In this document: positions 3 through 20,402 of the stretch, piece by piece
How the letters are laid out: every line of letters begins with the position of its first letter
How positions within the stretch are numbered: the first letter of the stretch is position 1
Assembly: GCA_947451035.1 (NCBI GenBank)
Contig: CANFXR010000003.1
Location: 221 to 64,220 of the forward strand
Source of the DNA: Burkholderiales bacterium
GTDB lineage: Bacteria; Pseudomonadota; Gammaproteobacteria; Burkholderiales; Burkholderiaceae_C
Length of the DNA stretch: 64,000 nucleotides
Direction: 5' to 3'
Position numbers and translations under genes: made by a program
Notes under the pieces: generated by a model
What the model saw: only the letters and a program-made list of their open reading frames with translations
What the model was told of the DNA's origin: nothing
The model's database searches: none

Positions 3-2612
3 TTGCTCGATGACGAAATGTGGCTGCACCGCCTGCGGCAGGCGAGCGCGCTCAGCGGCATCACGCTGGTGGCCGCGGGCGATGTGCACTTTCATGTGCG
101 CTCGCGCAAGCCGCTGCAAGACGTGCTCACCGCCACGCGCGTGGGCCGGCCGCTCACCGAATGCGGCCTGGCGCTGCAGCCCAACGCCGAGCGGCATTTG
201 CGCACCCGCGTGCGCCTGGCGCAGACCTACCCGGCCGAGCTGCTGGCTGAAACGCTGGTGGTGGCCGCGCGCTGCCGTTTCAGCCTGGCCGAGCTGCGCT
301 ACCAGTACCCCGACGAGGTGGTGCCCGCCGGCGAAACGCCCGGCTCGTACCTGCGCCGCCTCACGTTCGAGGGGGCAGGGCGGCGCTGGCCGCAGGGGGT
401 GCCGGCGGCGCTGCAGCTGCAAATCGAGCACGAGCTCGAACTGATCGGCGAGCTGCGCTACGAGCATTACTTTTTGACGGTGGCCGACATCGTCACCTTC
501 GCGCGCTCGCGCCACATCCTGTGCCAGGGGCGCGGCAGCGCGGCCAACAGCGTGGTGTGCTTTTGCATCGGCGTGACCGAGGTCGACCCGGCGCGCATGA
601 GCGTGCTGTTCGAGCGCTTCATCAGCCGCGAGCGCAACGAGCCGCCCGACATCGACATCGACTTCGAGCACGAGCGCCGCGAGGAGGTGCTGCAGTACCT
701 GTACGCCAAGTACGGCCGCGACCGCGCCGCGCTCACCGGTGTGGTCATCAGCTACCGGCCCAAGAGCGCGCTGCGCGACGTGGGCAAGGCGCTGGGCTTC
801 AGTGTGGCCACGCTCGACGCGGTGGCGCGCGAGCACTCGCGCTGGGACGGCTGCGAGGTGCGCGCCGAGCGGCTGGCCGACGCCGGCCTGTCGGCCGACG
901 ACCTGCAGGTGCAGCAGCTGCTCAAGCTCGCCGGCCAGCTGCTGGGTTTCCCGCGCCACCTCAGCCAGCACACCGGCGGCTTCGTGCTCACGCGCGGCTT
1001 GCTGTGCCGCATGGTGCCCATCGAAAACGCCGCCATGCCCGATCGCACCGTCATCGAATGGGACAAGGACGACCTCGACGCCATCGGTTTGCTCAAGGTC
1101 GACTGCCTCGCGCTGGGCATGCTCACGGCGCTGAGCAAATCGCTGCGCTTCATCGGCGAGCGTCTGGGCGGCGTGTTCGAGATGCAAGACATCCCGAGCG
1201 AAGACCCCGCCACCTACGACATGGTGTGCCGCGCCGACACCGTGGGCGTGTTCCAGATCGAAAGCCGCGCGCAGATGAGCATGCTGCCGCGCTTGAAGCC
1301 GCGCTGCTTCTACGACCTGGTGATCGAAGTGGCCATCGTGCGCCCCGGCCCCATCGTGGGCGGCATGGTGCATCCGTACCTGAACCGGCGCCAGGGCAAG
1401 GAGCCGGTCAGCTACCCGAGTGCCGCGCTCGAGCAGGCGCTGGGCCGCACGCTGGGCGTGCCGGTGTTTCAGGAGCAGGTGATGCAGATCTCGATCCTGG
1501 CCGCCGGCTTCACGCCGGGCGAGGCCGACGGCCTGCGCCGCGCCATGGCCGCCTGGAAGCGCAAGGGCGGGCTTGAGAAATACCACGCCAAGATCATCGA
1601 CGGCATGACCTCGCGCGGCTACGACGAGGCCTTTGCACGGGCCATCTTCGAGCAGATCAAGGGCTTTTCGGAGTACGGCTTTCCCGAGAGCCATGCGGCC
1701 TCGTTCGCCTTGCTGGTCTACGCCAGTTGCTGGATCAAGTGCCACCACCCGGCCGAGTTTCTGGCCGCGATGCTCAACTCGCAGCCGCTGGGTTTTTATT
1801 CGCCGTCGCAGCTGGTGCAAGACGCCCGGCGCCACGGCGTCGAGGTGCGCGCGGCCGATGTCATGCACAGCGATGTCGACTGCACGCTCGAAGGCCTGCC
1901 GCATCCGCCGGCGGTGCGCCTGGGCTTGCGGCTGATCGCCGGGCTGTCAGCCGAGGCGGCCGCGCGCATCGTGGCCGCCCGCGGCGAGCAGGTGTTCGAC
2001 AGCGCCGACGACCTGGCCCGCCGCGCCGATTTGCAGCACCACGAGATGAAACTGCTGGCTGCGGCCGATGCGCTGATGAGCCTGTCGGGCCACCGCCGCC
2101 AGCAGGTGTGGGAGGCAGCCGCCTGGCGCGCCGCGCCGCTGCTGCTGCGCGAGGCACCCATCGATGAAGACGTGCTCGAGCTGCCGAGCGCACCCGAGGG
2201 CGAAGAGATCGTCTTCGACTACGCCGCGCTGGGCCTGAGCCTGCGCCGCCATCCGCTGGCGCTGCTGCGGCCGCAGTTGCGCGCGCGCCGGCTGCTCAGC
2301 GCCGAACAGCTGGCCGCCGTGCCCCACGGCCGCGCGGTGCGCTGCTGCGGCATCGTCACCTTGCGCCAGCAGCCCGAAACCGCCAACGGCACCACCTTCG
2401 TGTCGCTCGAAGACGAAACCGGCGTCGTGCAGGTGATCTGCTGGAAGTCGCTGCGCGAGCGCCAGCGCAGCGTGCTGCTGCGATCGCGGCTGCTGGCCGT
2501 TCACGGCACCTGGCAGCGCGAGGGTGCGGTGTGCAACCTGATCGCCGCGCAGCTCGAAGACCTCACGCCGCTGCTCGGGCGGTTGATGACCGACAGCCGC
2601 GATTTCAAGTGA
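3..2612 (+). CDS. dnaE2: Error-prone DNA polymerase DnaE2 (Pol III alpha family), 5' end cut by window edge
   Basis: The frame is open from the left edge. Pol III alpha motifs are present (GRGSAANSVVCFCIGVTEVDP, PDIDIDFEH, VFQIESRAQM, LGFYSP). An OB-fold C-terminus ends in SRDFK with no long tau-binding tail, which fits DnaE2/ImuC. Confidence 0.85.
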   Translation: MLDDEMWLHRLRQASALSGITLVAAGDVHFHVRSRKPLQDVLTATRVGRPLTECGLALQPNAERHLRTRVRLAQTYPAELLAETLVVAARCRFSLAELRYQYPDEVVPAGETPGSYLRRLTFEGAGRRWPQGVPAALQLQIEHELELIGELRYEHYFLTVADIVTFARSRHILCQGRGSAANSVVCFCIGVTEVDPARMSVLFERFISRERNEPPDIDIDFEHERREEVLQYLYAKYGRDRAALTGVVISYRPKSALRDVGKALGFSVATLDAVAREHSRWDGCEVRAERLADAGLSADDLQVQQLLKLAGQLLGFPRHLSQHTGGFVLTRGLLCRMVPIENAAMPDRTVIEWDKDDLDAIGLLKVDCLALGMLTALSKSLRFIGERLGGVFEMQDIPSEDPATYDMVCRADTVGVFQIESRAQMSMLPRLKPRCFYDLVIEVAIVRPGPIVGGMVHPYLNRRQGKEPVSYPSAALEQALGRTLGVPVFQEQVMQISILAAGFTPGEADGLRRAMAAWKRKGGLEKYHAKIIDGMTSRGYDEAFARAIFEQIKGFSEYGFPESHAASFALLVYASCWIKCHHPAEFLAAMLNSQPLGFYSPSQLVQDARRHGVEVRAADVMHSDVDCTLEGLPHPPAVRLGLRLIAGLSAEAAARIVAARGEQVFDSADDLARRADLQHHEMKLLAAADALMSLSGHRRQQVWEAAAWRAAPLLLREAPIDEDVLELPSAPEGEEIVFDYAALGLSLRRHPLALLRPQLRARRLLSAEQLAAVPHGRAVRCCGIVTLRQQPETANGTTFVSLEDETGVVQVICWKSLRERQRSVLLRSRLLAVHGTWQREGAVCNLIAAQLEDLTPLLGRLMTDSRDFK

Positions 2613-2967
2613 ATCCCGGCGAGCGCACCGCCTGAGCGAGCTGCTTTCGGGCCACGTGGGACGCCGCAGCCGCTGAACACGCCTTCAGACGGCCTTAAGG
2701 ATTGTTTCAGCAAGGGTTAACTCGTAACGACTTGCAACCAGGTGCTGCGGGATGCGCACCACACCATCGACGGACCCAGAGCCCGTTCCGGACCACGGTG
2801 CAAGCAAGCCTCCCCGGGGGCGCGGCGACGTGGCTGGGTGCTGCCGGCGTTGATCAACAGCAACGCGAAGGCATCTTCTTCAACTCACCCTCTCGAAATC
2901 GCACGTGCAAATCCCACGAACGCCCGGATACATCTGCACACCGCAAGACCCTGCGAGCGTCCAGACA

Positions 2968-3438
2968 ATGGGTTTGCCGACTCTTGATTTACTTCTTTTC
3001 GTCACCAAGACCATGCGTTTGCCTCACCTGTCACCTGCCAAATCCGACCCCAGCGCACGCCTGCTGTGGAGCGGCGTGTGCCTGGGTGCGCTGGTCTGGC
3101 TGCTCGCCCGGCAGCCGCTCGCCATGCCGTCGTGGTCCACCGTGTGGCTGCTCGCCGGCGCGCCGGTCGTCGAAGAAGTGATCTTCCGGCTCGGGCTGCA
3201 ACAAGAGCTCCTGTCCCGTGTGCGCTCGGCCGCCGTGGCCAATGTCGCCACCGCCGTGGTCTTCGCGCTGGCGCATGGCCTGAGCCAAGGCACGGGGCTG
3301 TCGCTGCTCACGCTGCTGCCGGCGCTGGTCATCGGTTCGATCTTCCAGCGCTCGCGCCATGTGGCGCCTTGCATCGCGCTGCACGCCGCTTTCAACGCCA
3401 TCTGGCTTGTCTTGCCCTCCACCCTCTTTTCAAGTTGA
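2968..3438 (+). CDS. CPBP-family (CAAX-type) glutamic intramembrane protease, small Mrt-like form
   Basis: Multi-TM protein with the CPBP signature motifs EEVIFR, FALAHG and HAAFN. The start is ambiguous (ATG 2968 or ATG 3013, neither with a clear SD). The stop lies 7 nt before the next gene. Confidence 0.7.
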   Translation: MGLPTLDLLLFVTKTMRLPHLSPAKSDPSARLLWSGVCLGALVWLLARQPLAMPSWSTVWLLAGAPVVEEVIFRLGLQQELLSRVRSAAVANVATAVVFALAHGLSQGTGLSLLTLLPALVIGSIFQRSRHVAPCIALHAAFNAIWLVLPSTLFSS

Positions 3439-6553: not shown

Positions 6554-6632
6554 TGAGCCACCGCCACTCACAGCCACACACTGAACCTCACGCTTGATCC
6601 TTTTTGCCGACGAGACACTTTTGGAGCCCACC

Positions 6633-7142
6633 ATGAACAACACATCCCTGACCCGCGCGCTGCGCCTGACCGCGCTGTGCCTGGCCACCCTGGCCGCCCC
6701 GGCGGCCTGGTCGCTCGAGGCCGGTGCGGCCGCGCCTGAACTGAGCCTGCCCGGCCTGAAGGACGCGGTGTCGCTGGCCCAGATGAAGGGCAAGGTCGTC
6801 TACGTCGACTTCTGGGCCTCGTGGTGCGGCCCGTGCAAGCAGTCGTTTCCGTTCATGAACGAGCTCAAGGCCAAGTACGGCGCGCAAGGCTTCGAGGTGC
6901 TGGCGGTCAATCTCGACGCCAAGCGCGGCGACGCCGACAAGTTCCTCGCCGAGGTGCCCGCGCAGTTCACGGTGGCCTTCGACACCAGCGGCGAGAGCGC
7001 CAAGCGCTTCGAGGTCAAGGGCATGCCGTCGTCGTACCTGGTCGGCCGCGACGGCAAGATTGCTTCGGCGCACAAGGGCTTTCGAGAGCAAGATCGCAAG
7101 GAACTCGAGTCGCGCATCGTCCAGGTGCTGGGCGCCCCGTGA
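6633..7142 (+). CDS. TlpA-like periplasmic thiol:disulfide oxidoreductase (thioredoxin fold)
   Basis: Signal peptide (MNNTSLTRALRLTALCLATLAAPAAWS). WCGPC active site within FWASWCGPC. Redoxin-type length. Confidence 0.85.
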   Translation: MNNTSLTRALRLTALCLATLAAPAAWSLEAGAAAPELSLPGLKDAVSLAQMKGKVVYVDFWASWCGPCKQSFPFMNELKAKYGAQGFEVLAVNLDAKRGDADKFLAEVPAQFTVAFDTSGESAKRFEVKGMPSSYLVGRDGKIASAHKGFREQDRKELESRIVQVLGAP

Positions 7143-7180: not shown

Positions 7181-7417
7181 ATGCCCCATACCCCCCGACG
7201 TTCTTTGCGCGTGTTGAGCGCGCTGCTGGCCGCCAGCGCCCTGGGCGGCTGCGCCATGGCGCCCCCGCAACCCTGGGAGCGCGGCAACCTGGCCCGCCCC
7301 GAGATGACGATGGGCGGTGATCCGCTGGACCAGCGCTTCGTCCAGCACATCTACGGCAGCAAGGAAAACGCCTCGGGTGGCTACGGCGTCGGTGGAGGTG
7401 GCTGTGGCTGCAACTGA
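7181..7417 (+). CDS. DUF4266-like small lipoprotein ending in GGGGCGCN
   Basis: Lipobox LGGC after a short signal peptide. 78 aa. C-terminal Cys-Gly-Cys at nt 7403-7411. It sits in the recurrent TlpA/DUF4266/DUF3570/ApbE neighbourhood; the family call is from memory. Confidence 0.65.
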   Translation: MPHTPRRSLRVLSALLAASALGGCAMAPPQPWERGNLARPEMTMGGDPLDQRFVQHIYGSKENASGGYGVGGGGCGCN

Positions 7418-7427
7418 CCCCAAATCC

Positions 7428-8576
7428 ATGAAGACCGCCCGCAACGAAAAGGCCGGAGCGATCATCGCCGCCGCGCTGGCGCTGCCCGGCGTGATGGCCC
7501 CCGGCCTGGCGCGCGCCGATTCGGCGCCCGAGCACGGCGAGATCGCCCTGAAGTACCTGCACTACGACGATTCGCAGCCCGGCCTGTCGCGCATCAAGGT
7601 GAACGCGCCGTCCCTTTACGTGATGGTGCCGCTGTCGCCCAAGTGGTCGGTCGAGGGCTCGCTGGTGTCCGACAGCGTGTCGGGTGCCACGCCGCGCTAC
7701 CACTCGGCGATCTCCGGTGCGACCAAGCACATGAAGGACCAGCGCAAGGCGCAAGACGTCAAGGTCACGCGCTACGAGGAGCGCTCGAGCTACTCGTTCG
7801 GCGTGAGCCACTCCAAGGAGCACGACTACGAGAGCACCGCGGGCTCGCTCGATGCCAGTTTTTCCAGCGACGACAACAACCGCACCTGGAACGTGGGCGT
7901 GGGCTTTTCCGACGACAAGATCGGTTCGCACAACAACGCCGCGCTGCACAAGACCAAGCAGACCGTCGAGCTGATGGCCGGTGTGACGCAGGCCTGGACG
8001 GCCAACGATCTGGTGCAGTTCAACGTGTCGCACAACCGCGGCCACGGCTACTACTCCGACCCCTACAAGGATCCGGACGTGCGGCCCGACTATCGCAACC
8101 AGTCGATTCTGCTCACGCGCTGGAACCACCATTTCGACGGGATGCACTCGACGCTCAAGACCAGTTATCGCTACTACCGCGACAACTTCGGCATCAAGGC
8201 GCACACGCTGGGCCTGGACTGGGTGCAGCCGCTGGGCGACAAGTTCACGGTGACGCCGTCGCTGCGCTACTACACGCAAACCGCGGCCAAGTTCTATTAC
8301 GACCCGGTGTACGACCCGGACGTGGGTGCGCCCTATCCCGTGGGCTACTTCGACAACCCGCCGAAGTACATCTCCGCCGACCAGCGCTTGTCGTCCTTCG
8401 GCGCCATCACGGTGGGCCTGAAGGTGGCCATGAAGGTGACGGCGGACTGGACGGTCGATGCGAAGGTCGAACGCTACGAGCAGCGCTCCGACTGGCGGCT
8501 GGGCGGGCGCGCTTCGCCGGGGCTGGATCCGTTTCGGGCGACCTTCTTCCAGTTCGGCGTGAGCAGGCGCTTCTGA
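7428..8576 (+). CDS. DUF3570-like predicted outer-membrane beta-barrel protein
   Basis: Signal peptide (..GLARA/DS). Alternating Tyr/Gly-rich beta-strand pattern. Terminal ..FGVSRRF with a C-terminal Phe typical of OMPs. Contains DSVSGAT and SAISGAT (nt 7671-7724). Confidence 0.65.
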   Translation: MKTARNEKAGAIIAAALALPGVMAPGLARADSAPEHGEIALKYLHYDDSQPGLSRIKVNAPSLYVMVPLSPKWSVEGSLVSDSVSGATPRYHSAISGATKHMKDQRKAQDVKVTRYEERSSYSFGVSHSKEHDYESTAGSLDASFSSDDNNRTWNVGVGFSDDKIGSHNNAALHKTKQTVELMAGVTQAWTANDLVQFNVSHNRGHGYYSDPYKDPDVRPDYRNQSILLTRWNHHFDGMHSTLKTSYRYYRDNFGIKAHTLGLDWVQPLGDKFTVTPSLRYYTQTAAKFYYDPVYDPDVGAPYPVGYFDNPPKYISADQRLSSFGAITVGLKVAMKVTADWTVDAKVERYEQRSDWRLGGRASPGLDPFRATFFQFGVSRRF

Positions 8577-8579
8577 GCC

Positions 8580-9572
8580 ATGCGCGCCGCCGTGTCACCC
8601 CTTCGAAAGCGCGCCAAGGGTGCGCCGTCGAAGGCGCACGCCTATCGCTTCGAGTTCGATGCGATGTCCAGCGTGTGCGAGATCCGTCTCGACGACGCAC
8701 GCGGTGAAGGCGAGCCGGTGCTGGCGCTGGCGGCCGAACAGGCCATCAGCGAGGTGCGTCGCATCGAGGTGGCGTTTTCGCGCTACCGCGCCGACAGCAT
8801 CGTGTCGCGCATCAACGCGGCAGCGGGCGGGCCTGACGTGGTGGGGGTGGACGACGAGACCGCCTCGCTGCTGAACTTTGCGGCGCAGCTGCATGCGTTC
8901 AGCGACGGGCTGTTCGACATCACCTCCGGCGTGCTGCGCCGGGTCTGGGATTTCAAGGCGCAGCGCGTTCCTGATGAGGCGGCGCTGCAGCAGGTGCTGC
9001 CACTGATCGGCTGGTCGCAGGTGGAGTGGACGGGTCAGACGATCCGGCTGCCGCGGGCGGGCATGGAGGTCGACTTCGGCGGCTTCGGCAAGGAATACGC
9101 CGCCGACCGCGCGATGGCGGTGCTGCACGCCACCGGCCAGCGCCACGGCTACGTGAACCTGGGTGGCGACATCCGGGTGCTCGGGCCGCGTGCCGACGGC
9201 AGCGCGTGGCGCTTCGGCATCCAGCACCCGCGCCACGACGAGGGCACGATCGCCAGCGTCGAGTTGCGCGAGGGCGCGCTGGCCACCAGCGGCGACTACG
9301 AGCGTTACTTCGAGCAGGCGGGCCGGCGCTATTGCCACATCCTCGATCCACACACCGGCTGGCCGGTGACCCACTGGGCCAGCGTCAGTGTGACGGCACC
9401 GGCTTGCGTGGCGGCCGGCGCGCTCACCACGATCGCCATGCTCAAGGGCGCCTCGGCGCCCGAATTTCTCGCTGCCCAGGCCGCCACCGGCCTGGTCGTC
9501 GATACCGCGATGCGCAGCACGCGCATCGGCGCCGAGCACGACCGGCGCATCACCCAAGGAGAACAAGAATGA
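8580..9572 (+). CDS. apbE: FAD:protein FMN transferase (ApbE family)
   Basis: ApbE-type motifs are present (FSRYRADSIVSRIN, GLFDITSG, VDFGGFGKEYAADRA, NLGGDIRV, ATSGDYERYF, HILDP). No recognisable signal peptide or lipobox. Confidence 0.85.
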   Translation: MRAAVSPLRKRAKGAPSKAHAYRFEFDAMSSVCEIRLDDARGEGEPVLALAAEQAISEVRRIEVAFSRYRADSIVSRINAAAGGPDVVGVDDETASLLNFAAQLHAFSDGLFDITSGVLRRVWDFKAQRVPDEAALQQVLPLIGWSQVEWTGQTIRLPRAGMEVDFGGFGKEYAADRAMAVLHATGQRHGYVNLGGDIRVLGPRADGSAWRFGIQHPRHDEGTIASVELREGALATSGDYERYFEQAGRRYCHILDPHTGWPVTHWASVSVTAPACVAAGALTTIAMLKGASAPEFLAAQAATGLVVDTAMRSTRIGAEHDRRITQGEQE

Positions 9573-11419
9573 ACCTTCCACGATGGGCCCAGTGCCTGAG
9601 CGTGACCGCGGCCGCGCTGCTGTTCGCAGCCGTGTCGGGCGCCCCGGCGCTGGCCGGCGAGCCCGACTTTCTGGACCCGGCGCAGGCCTTCGTGGGCAGC
9701 GCCCGTGTGGGCAACGCGAAGACCGTGGAGCTGCGCATCGACGTCGCGCCGGAGTACCACCTCTACCGCGATCGCATCAGCGTCGAGGCCGAAGGGGCCG
9801 GTGCCACGCTGGGCGAAGTGGCCATTCCTGCGGGCAAGGTCGAGTTCGACACGAACTTCAACAAGAACGTCGAGGTGCTGCACGGCGCGTTGCTGATCCG
9901 CGTGCCGGTGCAGCCCACGGGCCGTGACTTCCGCTTGCGCGTGGTCTACCAGGGCTGCGCCGACAAGGGGCTGTGCTACCCGCCGCAAACCGCCTTCGTG
10001 AATGCCGACGCGCGCGACGGCCAGCTGCTGCGCGCGCAGTGGCAAGGCGAGGACGCCGCACCGGTCACCGTCTCGGACGTGGCTGTCGTGGTCGCGCCAG
10101 CGGTCGATGCCGCACCGGTGTCGCAAACCGCGAAGGTCGAGTCGGCACTCAAGTCGGGCAGCTTGCTCACCATCGCCGGCGTGTTTCTGGTGGCCGGCTT
10201 GCTGCTCGCCTTCACGCCTTGCGTGCTGCCGATGGTGCCCATCCTGTCTTCGATCATCGTGGGGCAGGGCGCACCGGTTTCGCGCACACGGGGCTTTGCG
10301 ATGGCGCTGGCCTATTCGCTGGGCATGGCGCTGGTCTACACCGCGTTCGGTGTGGTCGCCGGTCTGCTCGGCGAGGGGCTGGCCGCGGCGCTGCAAAACC
10401 CCTGGGTGCTGGGTGCTTTCGCGCTGATGCTGGCCACGCTGTCGCTGTCGATGTTCGGCGTGTTCGAGCTCCAAATGCCCAGCTTCATCCAAAGCCGCAT
10501 CACCGAGAGCTCGAGCCGTCTGCCCGGCGGCAAGTTCATGGGCGTGTTCGTCATGGGTGGCTTGTCGGCGCTGATCGTGGGCCCGTGCGTGGCCGCGCCG
10601 CTGGCCGGTGCACTGGTGTTCATCAGCCAGACGCGCGACGTCGTCATCGGCGGGCTGGCGCTGTTCAGTCTGGCCATGGGCATGAGCGTGCCGCTGCTGC
10701 TGGTGGGCGTGTCGGCGGGCTCGCTGCTGCCGCGCGCCGGCAGCTGGATGGAAGGCGTCAAGACCTTCTTCGGCGTGATGCTGTTGGGGGTGGCGCTGTG
10801 GATCGTCTCGCCGGTGCTGCCGGTGTGGGTGGTGATGTTGATCATCGGCAGCGGCTTGCTGGTCGCTGCGATCTACCTCAAGCTGTTTGACCGGCTGGCC
10901 GACACCGCTTCGGGCCGCCAGCGACTGGCCAAGGGCGCCGCGCTGGTGCTCGCCGTGCTGGGCGCCACGCAGGTGGTGGGCGCGCTGTCGGGCGGTGACA
11001 ACCCGCTGCAGCCGCTGGGGCATTTCGCTCGCGGCCCGAGCGCGGGTCCGGCCGCAACGCAGGCCACCAGCTTTCGGCGCATCCGCACCGTGGCCGAACT
11101 CGAGGCCGCGCTGAAGGTGACCGACCGTCCCGTGATGCTCGACTTCTATGCCGACTGGTGCGTGTCGTGCAAGGAAATGGAACACCTGACCTTCAGCCAT
11201 CCGACGGTGCAGCCTCGCATGGCCAACGCGCTGCTGCTGCAAGCCGACGTGACCGACAACTCGGCCGACGCCAAGGCGCTGCTCAAGCGCTTCGGGCTGT
11301 TCGGCCCGCCGGGCGTGCTGTTCTTCGACAAGCATGGCCGCGAGCAGGCCAACGCCCGCGTGGTCGGCTTCGTGCCGGCGCTGGGGTTTATCGCGTCGCT
11401 GGGGGCGGTCGGGCTGTAA
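9569..11419 (+). CDS. dsbD: Thiol:disulfide interchange protein DsbD
   Basis: The ATG overlaps the apbE stop (ATGA). Signal peptide and N-terminal DsbD-alpha domain (YQGCADKGLCYPP). Central multi-TM domain with CVLP and GPCVAAP. C-terminal thioredoxin domain with WCVSCK. Confidence 0.9.
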   Translation: MNLPRWAQCLSVTAAALLFAAVSGAPALAGEPDFLDPAQAFVGSARVGNAKTVELRIDVAPEYHLYRDRISVEAEGAGATLGEVAIPAGKVEFDTNFNKNVEVLHGALLIRVPVQPTGRDFRLRVVYQGCADKGLCYPPQTAFVNADARDGQLLRAQWQGEDAAPVTVSDVAVVVAPAVDAAPVSQTAKVESALKSGSLLTIAGVFLVAGLLLAFTPCVLPMVPILSSIIVGQGAPVSRTRGFAMALAYSLGMALVYTAFGVVAGLLGEGLAAALQNPWVLGAFALMLATLSLSMFGVFELQMPSFIQSRITESSSRLPGGKFMGVFVMGGLSALIVGPCVAAPLAGALVFISQTRDVVIGGLALFSLAMGMSVPLLLVGVSAGSLLPRAGSWMEGVKTFFGVMLLGVALWIVSPVLPVWVVMLIIGSGLLVAAIYLKLFDRLADTASGRQRLAKGAALVLAVLGATQVVGALSGGDNPLQPLGHFARGPSAGPAATQATSFRRIRTVAELEAALKVTDRPVMLDFYADWCVSCKEMEHLTFSHPTVQPRMANALLLQADVTDNSADAKALLKRFGLFGPPGVLFFDKHGREQANARVVGFVPALGFIASLGAVGL

Positions 11420-11543: not shown

Positions 11544-12440
11544 ATGAGCATCTCCGCCACCTCGAACTCCCATGAACGCGGCTTGCAGGTGGCCGTGGCC
11601 TTCTGCCTGCTCGATGTGTGCCTGACGGGGGGCGCGGCGTTTGCCTCGACCTCGCTCACCATCATGAGCGACCTGCTCAAGGAGTCGACTGACTTCCTGG
11701 CCGTGCTGGCGGCGTACCTCACGGTGCGCGCGGTGCGTCGCGCACCCGACGAGCGCTACGGCTACGGCATCGGCAAGCTCGAGAACCTGGTCAGCATGGC
11801 CATCGCCGTGGCGATGGTGGCGTGCGCGGGGTTCATCCTGATACAGGCGTCGCATCACCTGCGCGATCCGCAGCCCACCGAAGGCACGCTGCCCGGCATC
11901 GTGATCTTCTCGACCTATGCGGCGATCGGTTTCGGCATCTCGTTGCGCAACCGGCTCGAGCTGCGCAAGCGCGAGTCGGCGATCCTCGAATCACAGGCCC
12001 AGCTGTGGTTTTCCAAGGCGTGCTTCGACGCGCTGATGGCGCTCACGCTGATCACGCAGGTGGTGTGCCACGGGCAGCGCTGGAGCTTGTATCTGGATCC
12101 GATCGCGTCGCTGCTCGGCGTATTTTTCCTGCTGCACGCGGCCTGGGCGATCACCAGTTCATCGGTGGGTGACCTGCTCGATGCCAGCCTGTCCGAGCAC
12201 CTCCAGTTGCGCATCCTGCGCCAGCTGGTCGAGCGCTTCGACGACTACGACCGGCTGCACAAGATCCGCACCCGGCGCTCCGGGCCTCACGTGTACGTCG
12301 AAGTCTTTTTGCAGTTCGACCCCGCGCTGCTGATGCGCGAAGTGCAAAACCGCATCAACGCGATTGCCGCCCAGATCACCCGCGAGATTCCCGGCACGCA
12401 GGTGGTCATCGTGCCGTCGTGCGAGGCCCCTGCGGACTGA
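11544..12440 (+). CDS. Cation diffusion facilitator (CDF) family transporter
   Basis: Six-TM N-terminal part with CDF-like TM1/TM2 (ASTSLTIMSDLLKESTDF) and a cytoplasmic C-terminal domain (YVEVFLQFDP...). Confidence 0.75.
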   Translation: MSISATSNSHERGLQVAVAFCLLDVCLTGGAAFASTSLTIMSDLLKESTDFLAVLAAYLTVRAVRRAPDERYGYGIGKLENLVSMAIAVAMVACAGFILIQASHHLRDPQPTEGTLPGIVIFSTYAAIGFGISLRNRLELRKRESAILESQAQLWFSKACFDALMALTLITQVVCHGQRWSLYLDPIASLLGVFFLLHAAWAITSSSVGDLLDASLSEHLQLRILRQLVERFDDYDRLHKIRTRRSGPHVYVEVFLQFDPALLMREVQNRINAIAAQITREIPGTQVVIVPSCEAPAD

Positions 12441-19520: not shown

Positions 19521-20402
19521 ATGATCAAGCCGATGGACAACGAAAAGCTGGCACGCGCCGCAGTCTGGGTGTCGGCGTCCGCGGTGATGTGGTGTCTGGC
19601 TGCAGCCATCGCCAGCACGTCGCTGACATTGATCGCCGATGTGGTGAACGCCTCGCTGGATCTGGCCGCCTGTGTGCTGGCTTATGTGACGTTGCGGCTG
19701 CAGCGGGGCACCTATCGCGCCTTGCTTGATTACGGCGTGGGCAAGCTTGAGGCCATCGCTTCGCTTTTCATCGGCTTGCTGGCTGGCGGCGGTGCGGCAT
19801 TTGTTCTGTACGAGGCTTTTCGCGCGCTGGTCAATCCGCAGCCCGTGTCTGGCGGCGGCATTGTCTGGGGCCTCATCGGGTGCTGGGTGATCAGCGGGCT
19901 TTGCGGGCGTTTGTGGTGGCAGTTCAAGCGGCAGCTTTCGCATGGCGATTCGCCGATAACAGCCGCCCAAATGCACATACACCTCATCAGCTGCTGGACG
20001 TCGCTCGGGGTTTCGGTGCCACTGGCGTGTTCGCTGGTCTTCAACGCCGGCTGGGTGCGTTACCTGGATGTCACGATTTCTGTGGCGCTGGGTCTGTTTG
20101 CGGCCCACGTGGGCTGGGGCATGGTTCGCCACTCGTTGGGCAACATGGTCGATCAGTCCCTGGACGAACCTTTGCAGGTCATCATCAACCGACACCTGGT
20201 CGAGCATTTCGAGACTTACGGAATGTTCGAAAAGGTTCGATCGCGCACCTGTGGCACCGACATCTTTATCGAGATATTTCTGAACTTCCAGCCGCACACG
20301 TCCATCGGCGACATTCAGGTGGTGTTCGATGCCATCAAAGGTGGCATCGAAAGCGACATCCACAAATCGCACGTGACCATGATCGCGGCTGCCGTGAAAT
20401 AG
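19521..20402 (+). CDS. Second CDF-family transporter (paralog of 11544..12440), lower GC
   Basis: Same architecture as the first CDF (ASTSLTLIADVVNASLDL, C-terminal IFIEIFLNFQP). The codon third positions are visibly richer in A/T than in its neighbours. Confidence 0.7.
   Translation: MIKPMDNEKLARAAVWVSASAVMWCLAAAIASTSLTLIADVVNASLDLAACVLAYVTLRLQRGTYRALLDYGVGKLEAIASLFIGLLAGGGAAFVLYEAFRALVNPQPVSGGGIVWGLIGCWVISGLCGRLWWQFKRQLSHGDSPITAAQMHIHLISCWTSLGVSVPLACSLVFNAGWVRYLDVTISVALGLFAAHVGWGMVRHSLGNMVDQSLDEPLQVIINRHLVEHFETYGMFEKVRSRTCGTDIFIEIFLNFQPHTSIGDIQVVFDAIKGGIESDIHKSHVTMIAAAVK

Follow-up and report, generated by a model that had tools for sequence, protein, structure and literature searches.

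The DNA analysed was a 64 kb stretch of a Burkholderiales bacterium (assembly GCA_947451035.1, contig CANFXR010000003.1), hereafter the window, and the subject is a gene cluster on its forward strand built around a DUF3570 family protein that is predicted to carry covalently bound flavin mononucleotide (FMN). The genes were arranged in the order mrtJ, JDVT-CTERM cytochrome c protein, tlpA, DUF4266, DUF3570, apbE and dsbD, with short or overlapping junctions, and seven proteins of this neighbourhood were covered by a Pfam scan. An original prediction, made without database searches, had proposed that a DUF3570-like outer membrane barrel contains two motifs for the FMN transferase ApbE and is the substrate of the ApbE encoded beside it.

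The DUF3570 protein and its gene neighbourhood

The open reading frame (ORF) of the DUF3570 protein (7317-8576) matched PF12094 with 213.8 bits (cut-off 25; E 5e-63) as its sole Pfam match, and its likely true start was the ATG at 7428 (MKTARNEK...), 10 nt past the DUF4266 stop. Positions 7671-7724 of the forward strand encoded DSVSGATPRYHSAISGAT, i.e. DSVSGAT-PRYH-SAISGAT, and both predicted motifs were therefore present in the translation, with SGAT at residues 85-88 and 96-99, each aligned with the motifs of the family. Their spacing had been given as nine residues; four residues (PRYH) part the heptads, and the SGAT-to-SGAT offset was 11. A Sec-type signal peptide could be read from the sequence as MKTARNEK-AGAIIAAALALPGVMAPGLARA/DS, the full N-terminal stretch being MKTARNEKAGAIIAAALALPGVMAPGLARA/DS (...LARA/DS). 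The protein contained no cysteine, hence no CXXCH in the barrel, and its partners must supply any thiol chemistry. The Pfam scan found no FMN_bind domain (PF04205) of the NqrC/RnfG type in it.

The DUF3570 gene ended with TGA at 8574-8576 and the ATG of apbE lay at 8580, which agrees with the 4 nt first reported. Both genes were in the same frame, separated by the TGA and one codon (gcc). Read-through of the stop codon into a DUF3570-ApbE fusion was considered and rejected, since spacing and frame varied among relatives, and for the same reason the shared frame is probably a coincidence. The features of the cluster are shown in Table 1.

Table 1. Positions in the window of the cluster genes and of the two flavinylation motifs
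Feature	Position	Strand	Basis
MrtJ, glutamic-type (CPBP) intramembrane protease of the JDVT-CTERM system	2905..3438	+	NCBIfam NF033192, 79 bits (cut-off 75); EExxFR and HxxxN motifs
JDVT-CTERM protein, 1064 aa	3359..6553, likely start ATG 3443	+	NF012200, E 7e-147; NF033191, 41.5 bits (cut-off 27); Pfam Cytochrome_CBB3
TlpA/ResA-like periplasmic thiol:disulfide oxidoreductase, WCGPC, signal peptide	6594..7142	+	Pfam Redoxin, 2e-23; AhpC-TSA
DUF4266 small lipoprotein, lipobox LGG/C, end GGGCGCN (CXC motif)	7181..7417	+	Pfam PF14086, E 1e-21
DUF3570 protein, 382 aa	7428..8576	+	Pfam PF12094; AlphaFold2 model; Foldseek
Flavinylation motif 1, D82-S-V-S-G-A-T88, predicted FMN acceptor T88, end of strand 3	7671..7691	+	
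Flavinylation motif 2, S93-A-I-S-G-A-T99, predicted FMN acceptor T99, strand 3/4 loop	7704..7724	+	
ApbE, FAD:protein FMN transferase, without signal peptide	8580..9572	+	Pfam PF02424, E 2e-78, 263.9 bits
DsbD with three domains (DsbD_N, DsbD_TM, thioredoxin)	9569..11419	+	Pfam; start overlaps the ApbE stop (ATGA)

Both components of the JDVT-CTERM/MrtJ sorting system were found in the window (NF033192 and NF033191 above their cut-offs). In the JDVT-CTERM protein, a signal peptide was followed by an N-terminal cytochrome c domain with a single haem motif (NCSGCH) and by some 8 Ig-like domains of the choice-of-anchor D type, and the C-terminus bore the sorting signal GGCSIA...TM...RRARR (TM, transmembrane segment). 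The TlpA-like protein had NCBIfam ResA/TlpA matches under the equivalog cut-offs. At the left end of the window (3-2612), an ORF read from the sequence as a DnaE2-like error-prone DNA polymerase alpha subunit runs off the edge and is unrelated to the cluster.

Conservation of the motifs and of the cluster

Motif conservation was assessed in three sets: a close set of 32 homologues (63-95% identity), a diverse alignment of 102 sequences (the query and 101 full-length representatives of 50%-identity clusters, 31-55% identical to the query), and 80 species-level genome loci of Burkholderiales type (L001-L080), with the motif region covered in 79. Both motifs were invariant in all 32 close homologues. 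The position of motif 1 held [ST]GA[ST] in 100 of the 102 diverse sequences, with G-A invariant there and G-A-(S/T)-P essentially invariant, while a second motif was present in 56 of the 102, mostly at an offset of 11 from motif 1 and at about 19-20 in the most distant members. Two or more motifs occurred in 67 of the 79 genome loci, spaced by 11 residues every time. Shuffled family members contained 0.077 [ST]GA[ST] motifs per protein, and the DUF3570 motifs are beyond chance.

These results answer the check proposed with the original prediction, that the SGAT motifs be looked for in a DUF3570 alignment. They also bear on an alternative in which the motifs are kept for structure or as relics and are unflavinylated in this lineage, enzyme and substrate being in different compartments. 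The presence of a signal peptide on DUF3570 and its absence from ApbE would fit such a state, as would the repeated loss of motif 2 in the family. Set against this, both motifs were invariant at 63-95% identity with T/S exchange only at the acceptor position, the D-x-x-S-G-A-T/S-P context fits the ApbE consensus, and apbE has been retained with intact catalytic stretches (TSGDYERYF and HILDPHTG, aligned with the PDB relatives 1VRM and 5MGY). A cytoplasmic enzyme can, moreover, reach a nascent or SecB-held precursor. The relic explanation is thus very improbable.

The related loci came from Rubrivivax, Roseateles, Ideonella, Rhizobacter, Methylibium and many metagenome-assembled genomes, and several of the missing genes were due to truncated contigs. 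Homologues were found for DUF4266 (78 of 80 loci), TlpA (73), ApbE (70), DsbD (56) and the JDVT-CTERM protein (54). Gene order was kept across the 80 loci, DUF3570 and ApbE were adjacent in 70 of them, and the core order was kept in distant loci as well. The haem motif of the JDVT-CTERM protein was CX2CH here and in one relative (L003) and CX4CH in most relatives. Distant clusters kept Redoxin, DUF4266, DUF3570 and ApbE, often with a different cytochrome c protein upstream.

Variant arrangements were seen among the distant loci. At L081 (4655-8057), and also at L082, the DUF3570-ApbE pair followed MoxR-type AAA and DUF58 genes without redoxin, DUF4266 or DsbD, so the barrel/ApbE pair can work in another context. 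At two loci of gammaproteobacterial type (L083, 370-5226, and L086, 1193-5289), the genes for a large lipoprotein and for an HXXSHH protein (PF07586), the latter with a signal resembling those of twin-arginine translocation (Tat), came before redoxin, DUF4266, DUF3570 and ApbE. The large protein of L083 had PSCyt/PSD and cytochrome c domains, which makes it a different candidate redox partner.

In the window, dsbD is followed by a gene for a FieF-like cation diffusion facilitator (CDF) at 11544-12440, which has a 32%-identical paralogue about 8 kb downstream (19581-20390). The CDF gene was rejected as a cluster member, as it was found in only 2 of the 80 loci, the two closest relatives (L002 and L042). 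VIT1 iron transporters occur in 25 published DUF3570 clusters (PMC8238504), and an iron link of the DUF3570 cluster through the CDF gene and this precedent is possible but weak.

Flavinylation of DUF3570 and the cluster type have been published. Meheust et al. (2021, eLife 10:e66878, PMC8238504) named DUF3570 in their abstract among two domains of unknown function flavinylated by ApbE, and reported two conserved [S/T]GA[S/T] motifs in 228 ApbE-associated DUF3570 proteins. Co-expression of the Chlorobium luteolum DUF3570 protein (ABB24424.1) with its cognate ApbE gave an ultraviolet-fluorescent band, which was abolished only when both motif serines were mutated (double Ser-to-Ala). The protein was made without its signal peptide, was flavinylated in the Escherichia coli cytoplasm and was mostly in the insoluble pellet. 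Clusters that combine ApbE and DUF3570 with a thioredoxin-like protein and a CXC-bearing DUF4266 were counted, 227 with DsbD and 316 without. The model put forward was a hybrid relay of thioredoxin and flavin supplied through DsbD, and the function of the clusters was called "uncertain".

The family conservation, co-expression and point mutants proposed as checks with the original prediction had therefore been done by these authors. Its central inference, that DUF3570 is the ApbE substrate, is borne out by the conserved motifs, by the adjacency of the two genes in 70 of 80 loci and by the covalent flavin on the C. luteolum homologue (PMC8238504). The novelty it implied was not borne out, except in one limited respect. 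Two-site flavinylation of DUF3570 by ApbE and the cluster type of DsbD, ApbE, DUF3570, thioredoxin-like protein and DUF4266 have been known since 2021. In that paper, however, DUF3570 was treated as a generic "secreted" extracytosolic acceptor, the word "barrel" was not used, and "outer membrane" was used only for TonB receptors and never for DUF3570. A full-text search found DUF3570 named in only four papers. A 2024 mSystems follow-up and a 2025 JBC review of ApbE did not mention DUF3570; the mSystems paper touched only briefly on an "outer membrane" location for some substrates.

Compared with the DUF3570 substrates of PMC8238504, the protein of the window belonged to the same Pfam family, had the same pair of [S/T]GA[S/T] motifs and had the same neighbours, namely ApbE, DsbD, a thioredoxin-like protein and a DUF4266 protein with a C-terminal CXC. 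The acceptors were Thr here and Ser in C. luteolum, and the cluster here was of Burkholderiales type. The thioredoxin-like partner scored best as Redoxin/TlpA here, whereas the paper cites PF13899, and the JDVT-CTERM cytochrome c protein and MrtJ found upstream are absent from that account. A 2023 preprint by Haft (10.1101/2023.06.07.544157) reported that some JDVT-CTERM proteins adjoin DUF4266, DUF3570 and TlpA genes, without a functional link. MrtJ and a JDVT-CTERM protein were found here too; the neighbourhood, called "rare" in the preprint, was present in 54 of the 80 related loci, and the flavinylation link and the cytochrome c domain drawn here are absent there.

Predicted barrel fold and position of the flavin loop

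An AlphaFold2 model of the DUF3570 protein, built on the alignment of the 32 homologues, had 16 beta-strands in a closed antiparallel barrel, with a mean predicted local distance difference test score (pLDDT) of 79.7 and a predicted template modelling score (pTM) of 0.78. The top Foldseek matches in the PDB were all outer membrane barrels (OmpG, PelB, BcsC, FadL and TonB-dependent receptors; E from 5e-10, template modelling score ~0.5), so that model and matches back the barrel of the original prediction. No sequence relative of DUF3570 was found in the PDB, and there was a weak, sub-threshold NCBIfam match to the YaiO outer membrane barrel model. The C-terminal Phe382 was invariant in the 32 homologues, and distant members ended in W, Y or F, and one in L. 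Sequence and model showed these marks of an integral outer membrane barrel: an even strand number, short turns and long loops on opposite sides, a Sec signal and a C-terminal aromatic residue. In the model, even-to-odd strand connections had 3-5 aa, and the long connections (17, 9, 15, 39 and 15 aa) were all odd-to-even. Motif 1 ended strand 3, and motif 2 lay in the 17-residue connection of strands 3 and 4, which is loop L2.

Canonical substrates of the beta-barrel assembly machinery (BAM) have both termini in the periplasm, so that the long loops would face outward or fold into the lumen. The model, the Foldseek matches and the invariant C-terminal Phe point to a 16-stranded outer membrane barrel. 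Its flavin loop is predicted to be loop 2 on the long-loop side, which would place that loop in the lumen or on the outer side.

Conservation was distributed unevenly over the modelled barrel. In the diverse alignment, conservation was higher on the polar than on the hydrophobic face in all but one of the 16 strands, and the near-invariant residues were mostly charged or polar (R106, E131, D133, D163, D211, K214, R219, R248, R280, D318 and R320). Loops L5 (GxxxDPYKxxDxRP; conservation score 0.69) and L3 (HD; 0.68) were the most conserved segments, L2 scored 0.50, and the short turns (0.24-0.53) and lipid-facing residues were the least conserved. The outer loops of ordinary porins are their most variable part. 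The reversed pattern seen here suggests a functional site made up of the lumen and of those long loops that surround the flavin loop.

It is quite unlikely that DUF3570 is instead a soluble or peripherally bound, beta-rich periplasmic protein and not an integral outer membrane barrel. The pTM of the model is not higher than 0.78, the polarity of some strands is high (for example S4, KDQRKAQDVKVTRY), the outward face has a modest mean hydrophobicity, and PMC8238504 never calls DUF3570 a membrane protein. These points are outweighed by the closed 16-strand model, by top structural matches that are all integral outer membrane proteins, by strands that alternate hydrophobic and polar residues and by the invariant C-terminal aromatic residue. 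The C. luteolum protein without its signal peptide also went to the insoluble pellet, as outer membrane proteins do (PMC8238504).

ApbE without an export signal and the proposed electron route

The N-terminus of the ApbE protein, MRAAVSPLRKRAKGAPSKAHAYRFEFDAMSS (start MRAAVSPLRKRAKGAPSKAHAYRFEF), was charged and had no hydrophobic stretch, with an in-frame stop one codon upstream, and the Pfam ApbE match started at residue 29. Neither a signal peptide nor a lipobox, as in the extracytosolic lipoprotein subtype of ApbE, was found on the ApbE proteins of this locus, of about 70 related loci or of 4 distant loci. In these distant loci (L081, L083, L085 and L086) the ApbE proteins had 272-300 aa and the domain began almost directly. 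The redoxin, DUF4266 and DUF3570 proteins all had signal peptides in the loci with a signal-less ApbE. A signal-less ApbE with an exported substrate implies flavinylation before Sec transport or an unknown export route. Bulky adducts are known to pass SecYEG, and flavinylation probably precedes Sec export, with the FMN attached during export. Export of a pre-folded flavoprotein by the Tat route was rejected, since no conserved twin-arginine motif was found in the 32 homologues and barrels must be unfolded for BAM. That the C. luteolum protein was flavinylated in the cytoplasm of E. coli and was mostly insoluble fits an unfolded chain as the form that is modified; PMC8238504 does not give the folding state at modification.

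Flavinylation in the periplasm, as in the Nqr/Rnf paradigm, by a signal-bearing ApbE encoded elsewhere was weighed against this order of events; in that case the adjacent ApbE would serve in the cytoplasm or be superfluous. Such an arrangement would account for the missing export signal, many genomes have several ApbE proteins (PMC8238504), and the characterised extracytosolic substrates are modified outside the cytoplasm by lipoprotein ApbEs (PMC12052999). Nevertheless, the signal-less ApbE adjoins DUF3570 in 70 of the 80 related loci and in the four distant loci, which argues for a dedicated pair, and in the published test the cognate ApbE of the cluster was enough for flavinylation in the cytoplasm of E. 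coli (PMC8238504). No second ApbE was found within the 64 kb of the window, the only part of the genome covered. Periplasmic modification is accordingly considered unlikely.

Three known types of system offer comparisons. Like the FMN_bind proteins NqrC, RnfG and NosR, the DUF3570 protein has the D-x-x-(S/T)-G-A-(T/S) motif, and it would share with them the FMN in phosphoester linkage to the last Thr/Ser and a role in extracytosolic electron transfer; unlike them, it has no FMN_bind domain, a predicted 16-strand barrel, two sites in one loop and an ApbE without a lipoprotein signal. Cytoplasmic ApbEs are known for cytoplasmic substrates (PMC12052999), and the ApbE of the window resembles that of Klebsiella pneumoniae, which acts on a soluble fumarate reductase, in lacking a signal peptide and in its probable cytoplasmic action. 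The K. pneumoniae substrate stays in the cytoplasm, whereas DUF3570 has a Sec signal and a predicted end point in the outer membrane.

The third type is the outer membrane barrel that carries or encloses a redox cofactor, represented by MtrAB/PioAB and by the fused cytochrome-porin Cyc2, which is predicted to have 16 strands. The likeness would be one of functional analogy: a barrel with a redox cofactor and a cytochrome partner encoded alongside. In contrast to these systems, the DUF3570 cofactor would be covalent FMN and not haem, the input would be a DsbD/TlpA thiol relay and not quinol or cytochromes, and no sequence homology was detected. The haem-binding CXXCH that porin-cytochrome conduits have in or with the barrel is absent from DUF3570; here a separate chain, the JDVT-CTERM protein, bears the haem motif.

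The preferred reading, given a probability of roughly 0.8, is that DUF3570 is a Sec-exported, cysteine-free outer membrane barrel of 16 strands, that the adjacent ApbE puts FMN on T88 and T99, and that the genes form a cluster of the published DsbD type with a proposed thiol-flavin-haem route. Both acceptor residues belong to the loop that follows strand 3, and the FMN linkage would be a phosphoester bond. DsbD would take reducing equivalents from thioredoxin in the cytoplasm and carry them over the inner membrane, and the TlpA-like redoxin would hand them on, probably via DUF4266, the lipoprotein with the CXC motif. DUF3570 could then accept the equivalents on its two FMNs and so turn the two-electron chemistry of thiols into single-electron steps for an acceptor further along. 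Flavin is a natural adaptor between two-electron dithiols and one-electron haem, which makes the co-encoded JDVT-CTERM protein, through its monohaem cytochrome c domain, a plausible acceptor here. The JDVT-CTERM cytochrome c protein and MrtJ upstream suggest a route from thiol to flavin to haem. We infer the order, direction and end function of this electron flow; its experimental support lies in the flavinylation step only, in a homologue.

Several points weigh against the preferred reading. The ApbE has no signal peptide though its DUF3570 substrate is exported, and we know of no direct precedent for an FMN-carrying chain passing through Sec. About 45% of distant DUF3570 members carry a single motif. 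The topology assignment depends on loop lengths and the canonical rule for outer membrane proteins, and the flavin loop L2 had a pLDDT below 50, so that the model does not fix its position in the lumen, on the surface or elsewhere. The experimental flavinylation was that of the C. luteolum homologue and of no Burkholderiales member.

A more far-reaching proposal, of a "flavo-porin" as the counterpart of Cyc2 and MtrAB, is doubtful. In it, DUF3570 would be flavinylated in the cytoplasm, threaded through SecYEG with its FMNs, and hold the two FMNs in the lumen or in outer-face loop 2 amid the conserved polar lumen and loops; as a thiol-to-haem converter, it would pass electrons across the outer membrane to a JDVT-CTERM cytochrome c anchored at the cell surface.

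The central claim, two-site flavinylation of DUF3570 by ApbE, has been close to textbook knowledge in the flavinylation field since 2021, and its confirmation here adds nothing new. Beyond PMC8238504, three inferences are offered for a widespread cluster whose function was called uncertain by its authors in 2021, namely an outer membrane barrel whose flavin loop lies among the conserved long loops on one side, a signal-less ApbE, and a cytochrome c/JDVT-CTERM partner. If the barrel, the flavin loop and the cytoplasmic ApbE hold true, DUF3570 would be an example of a chain that passes through the Sec channel with flavin covalently attached, and the first redox-active outer membrane barrel to use flavin and not haem.

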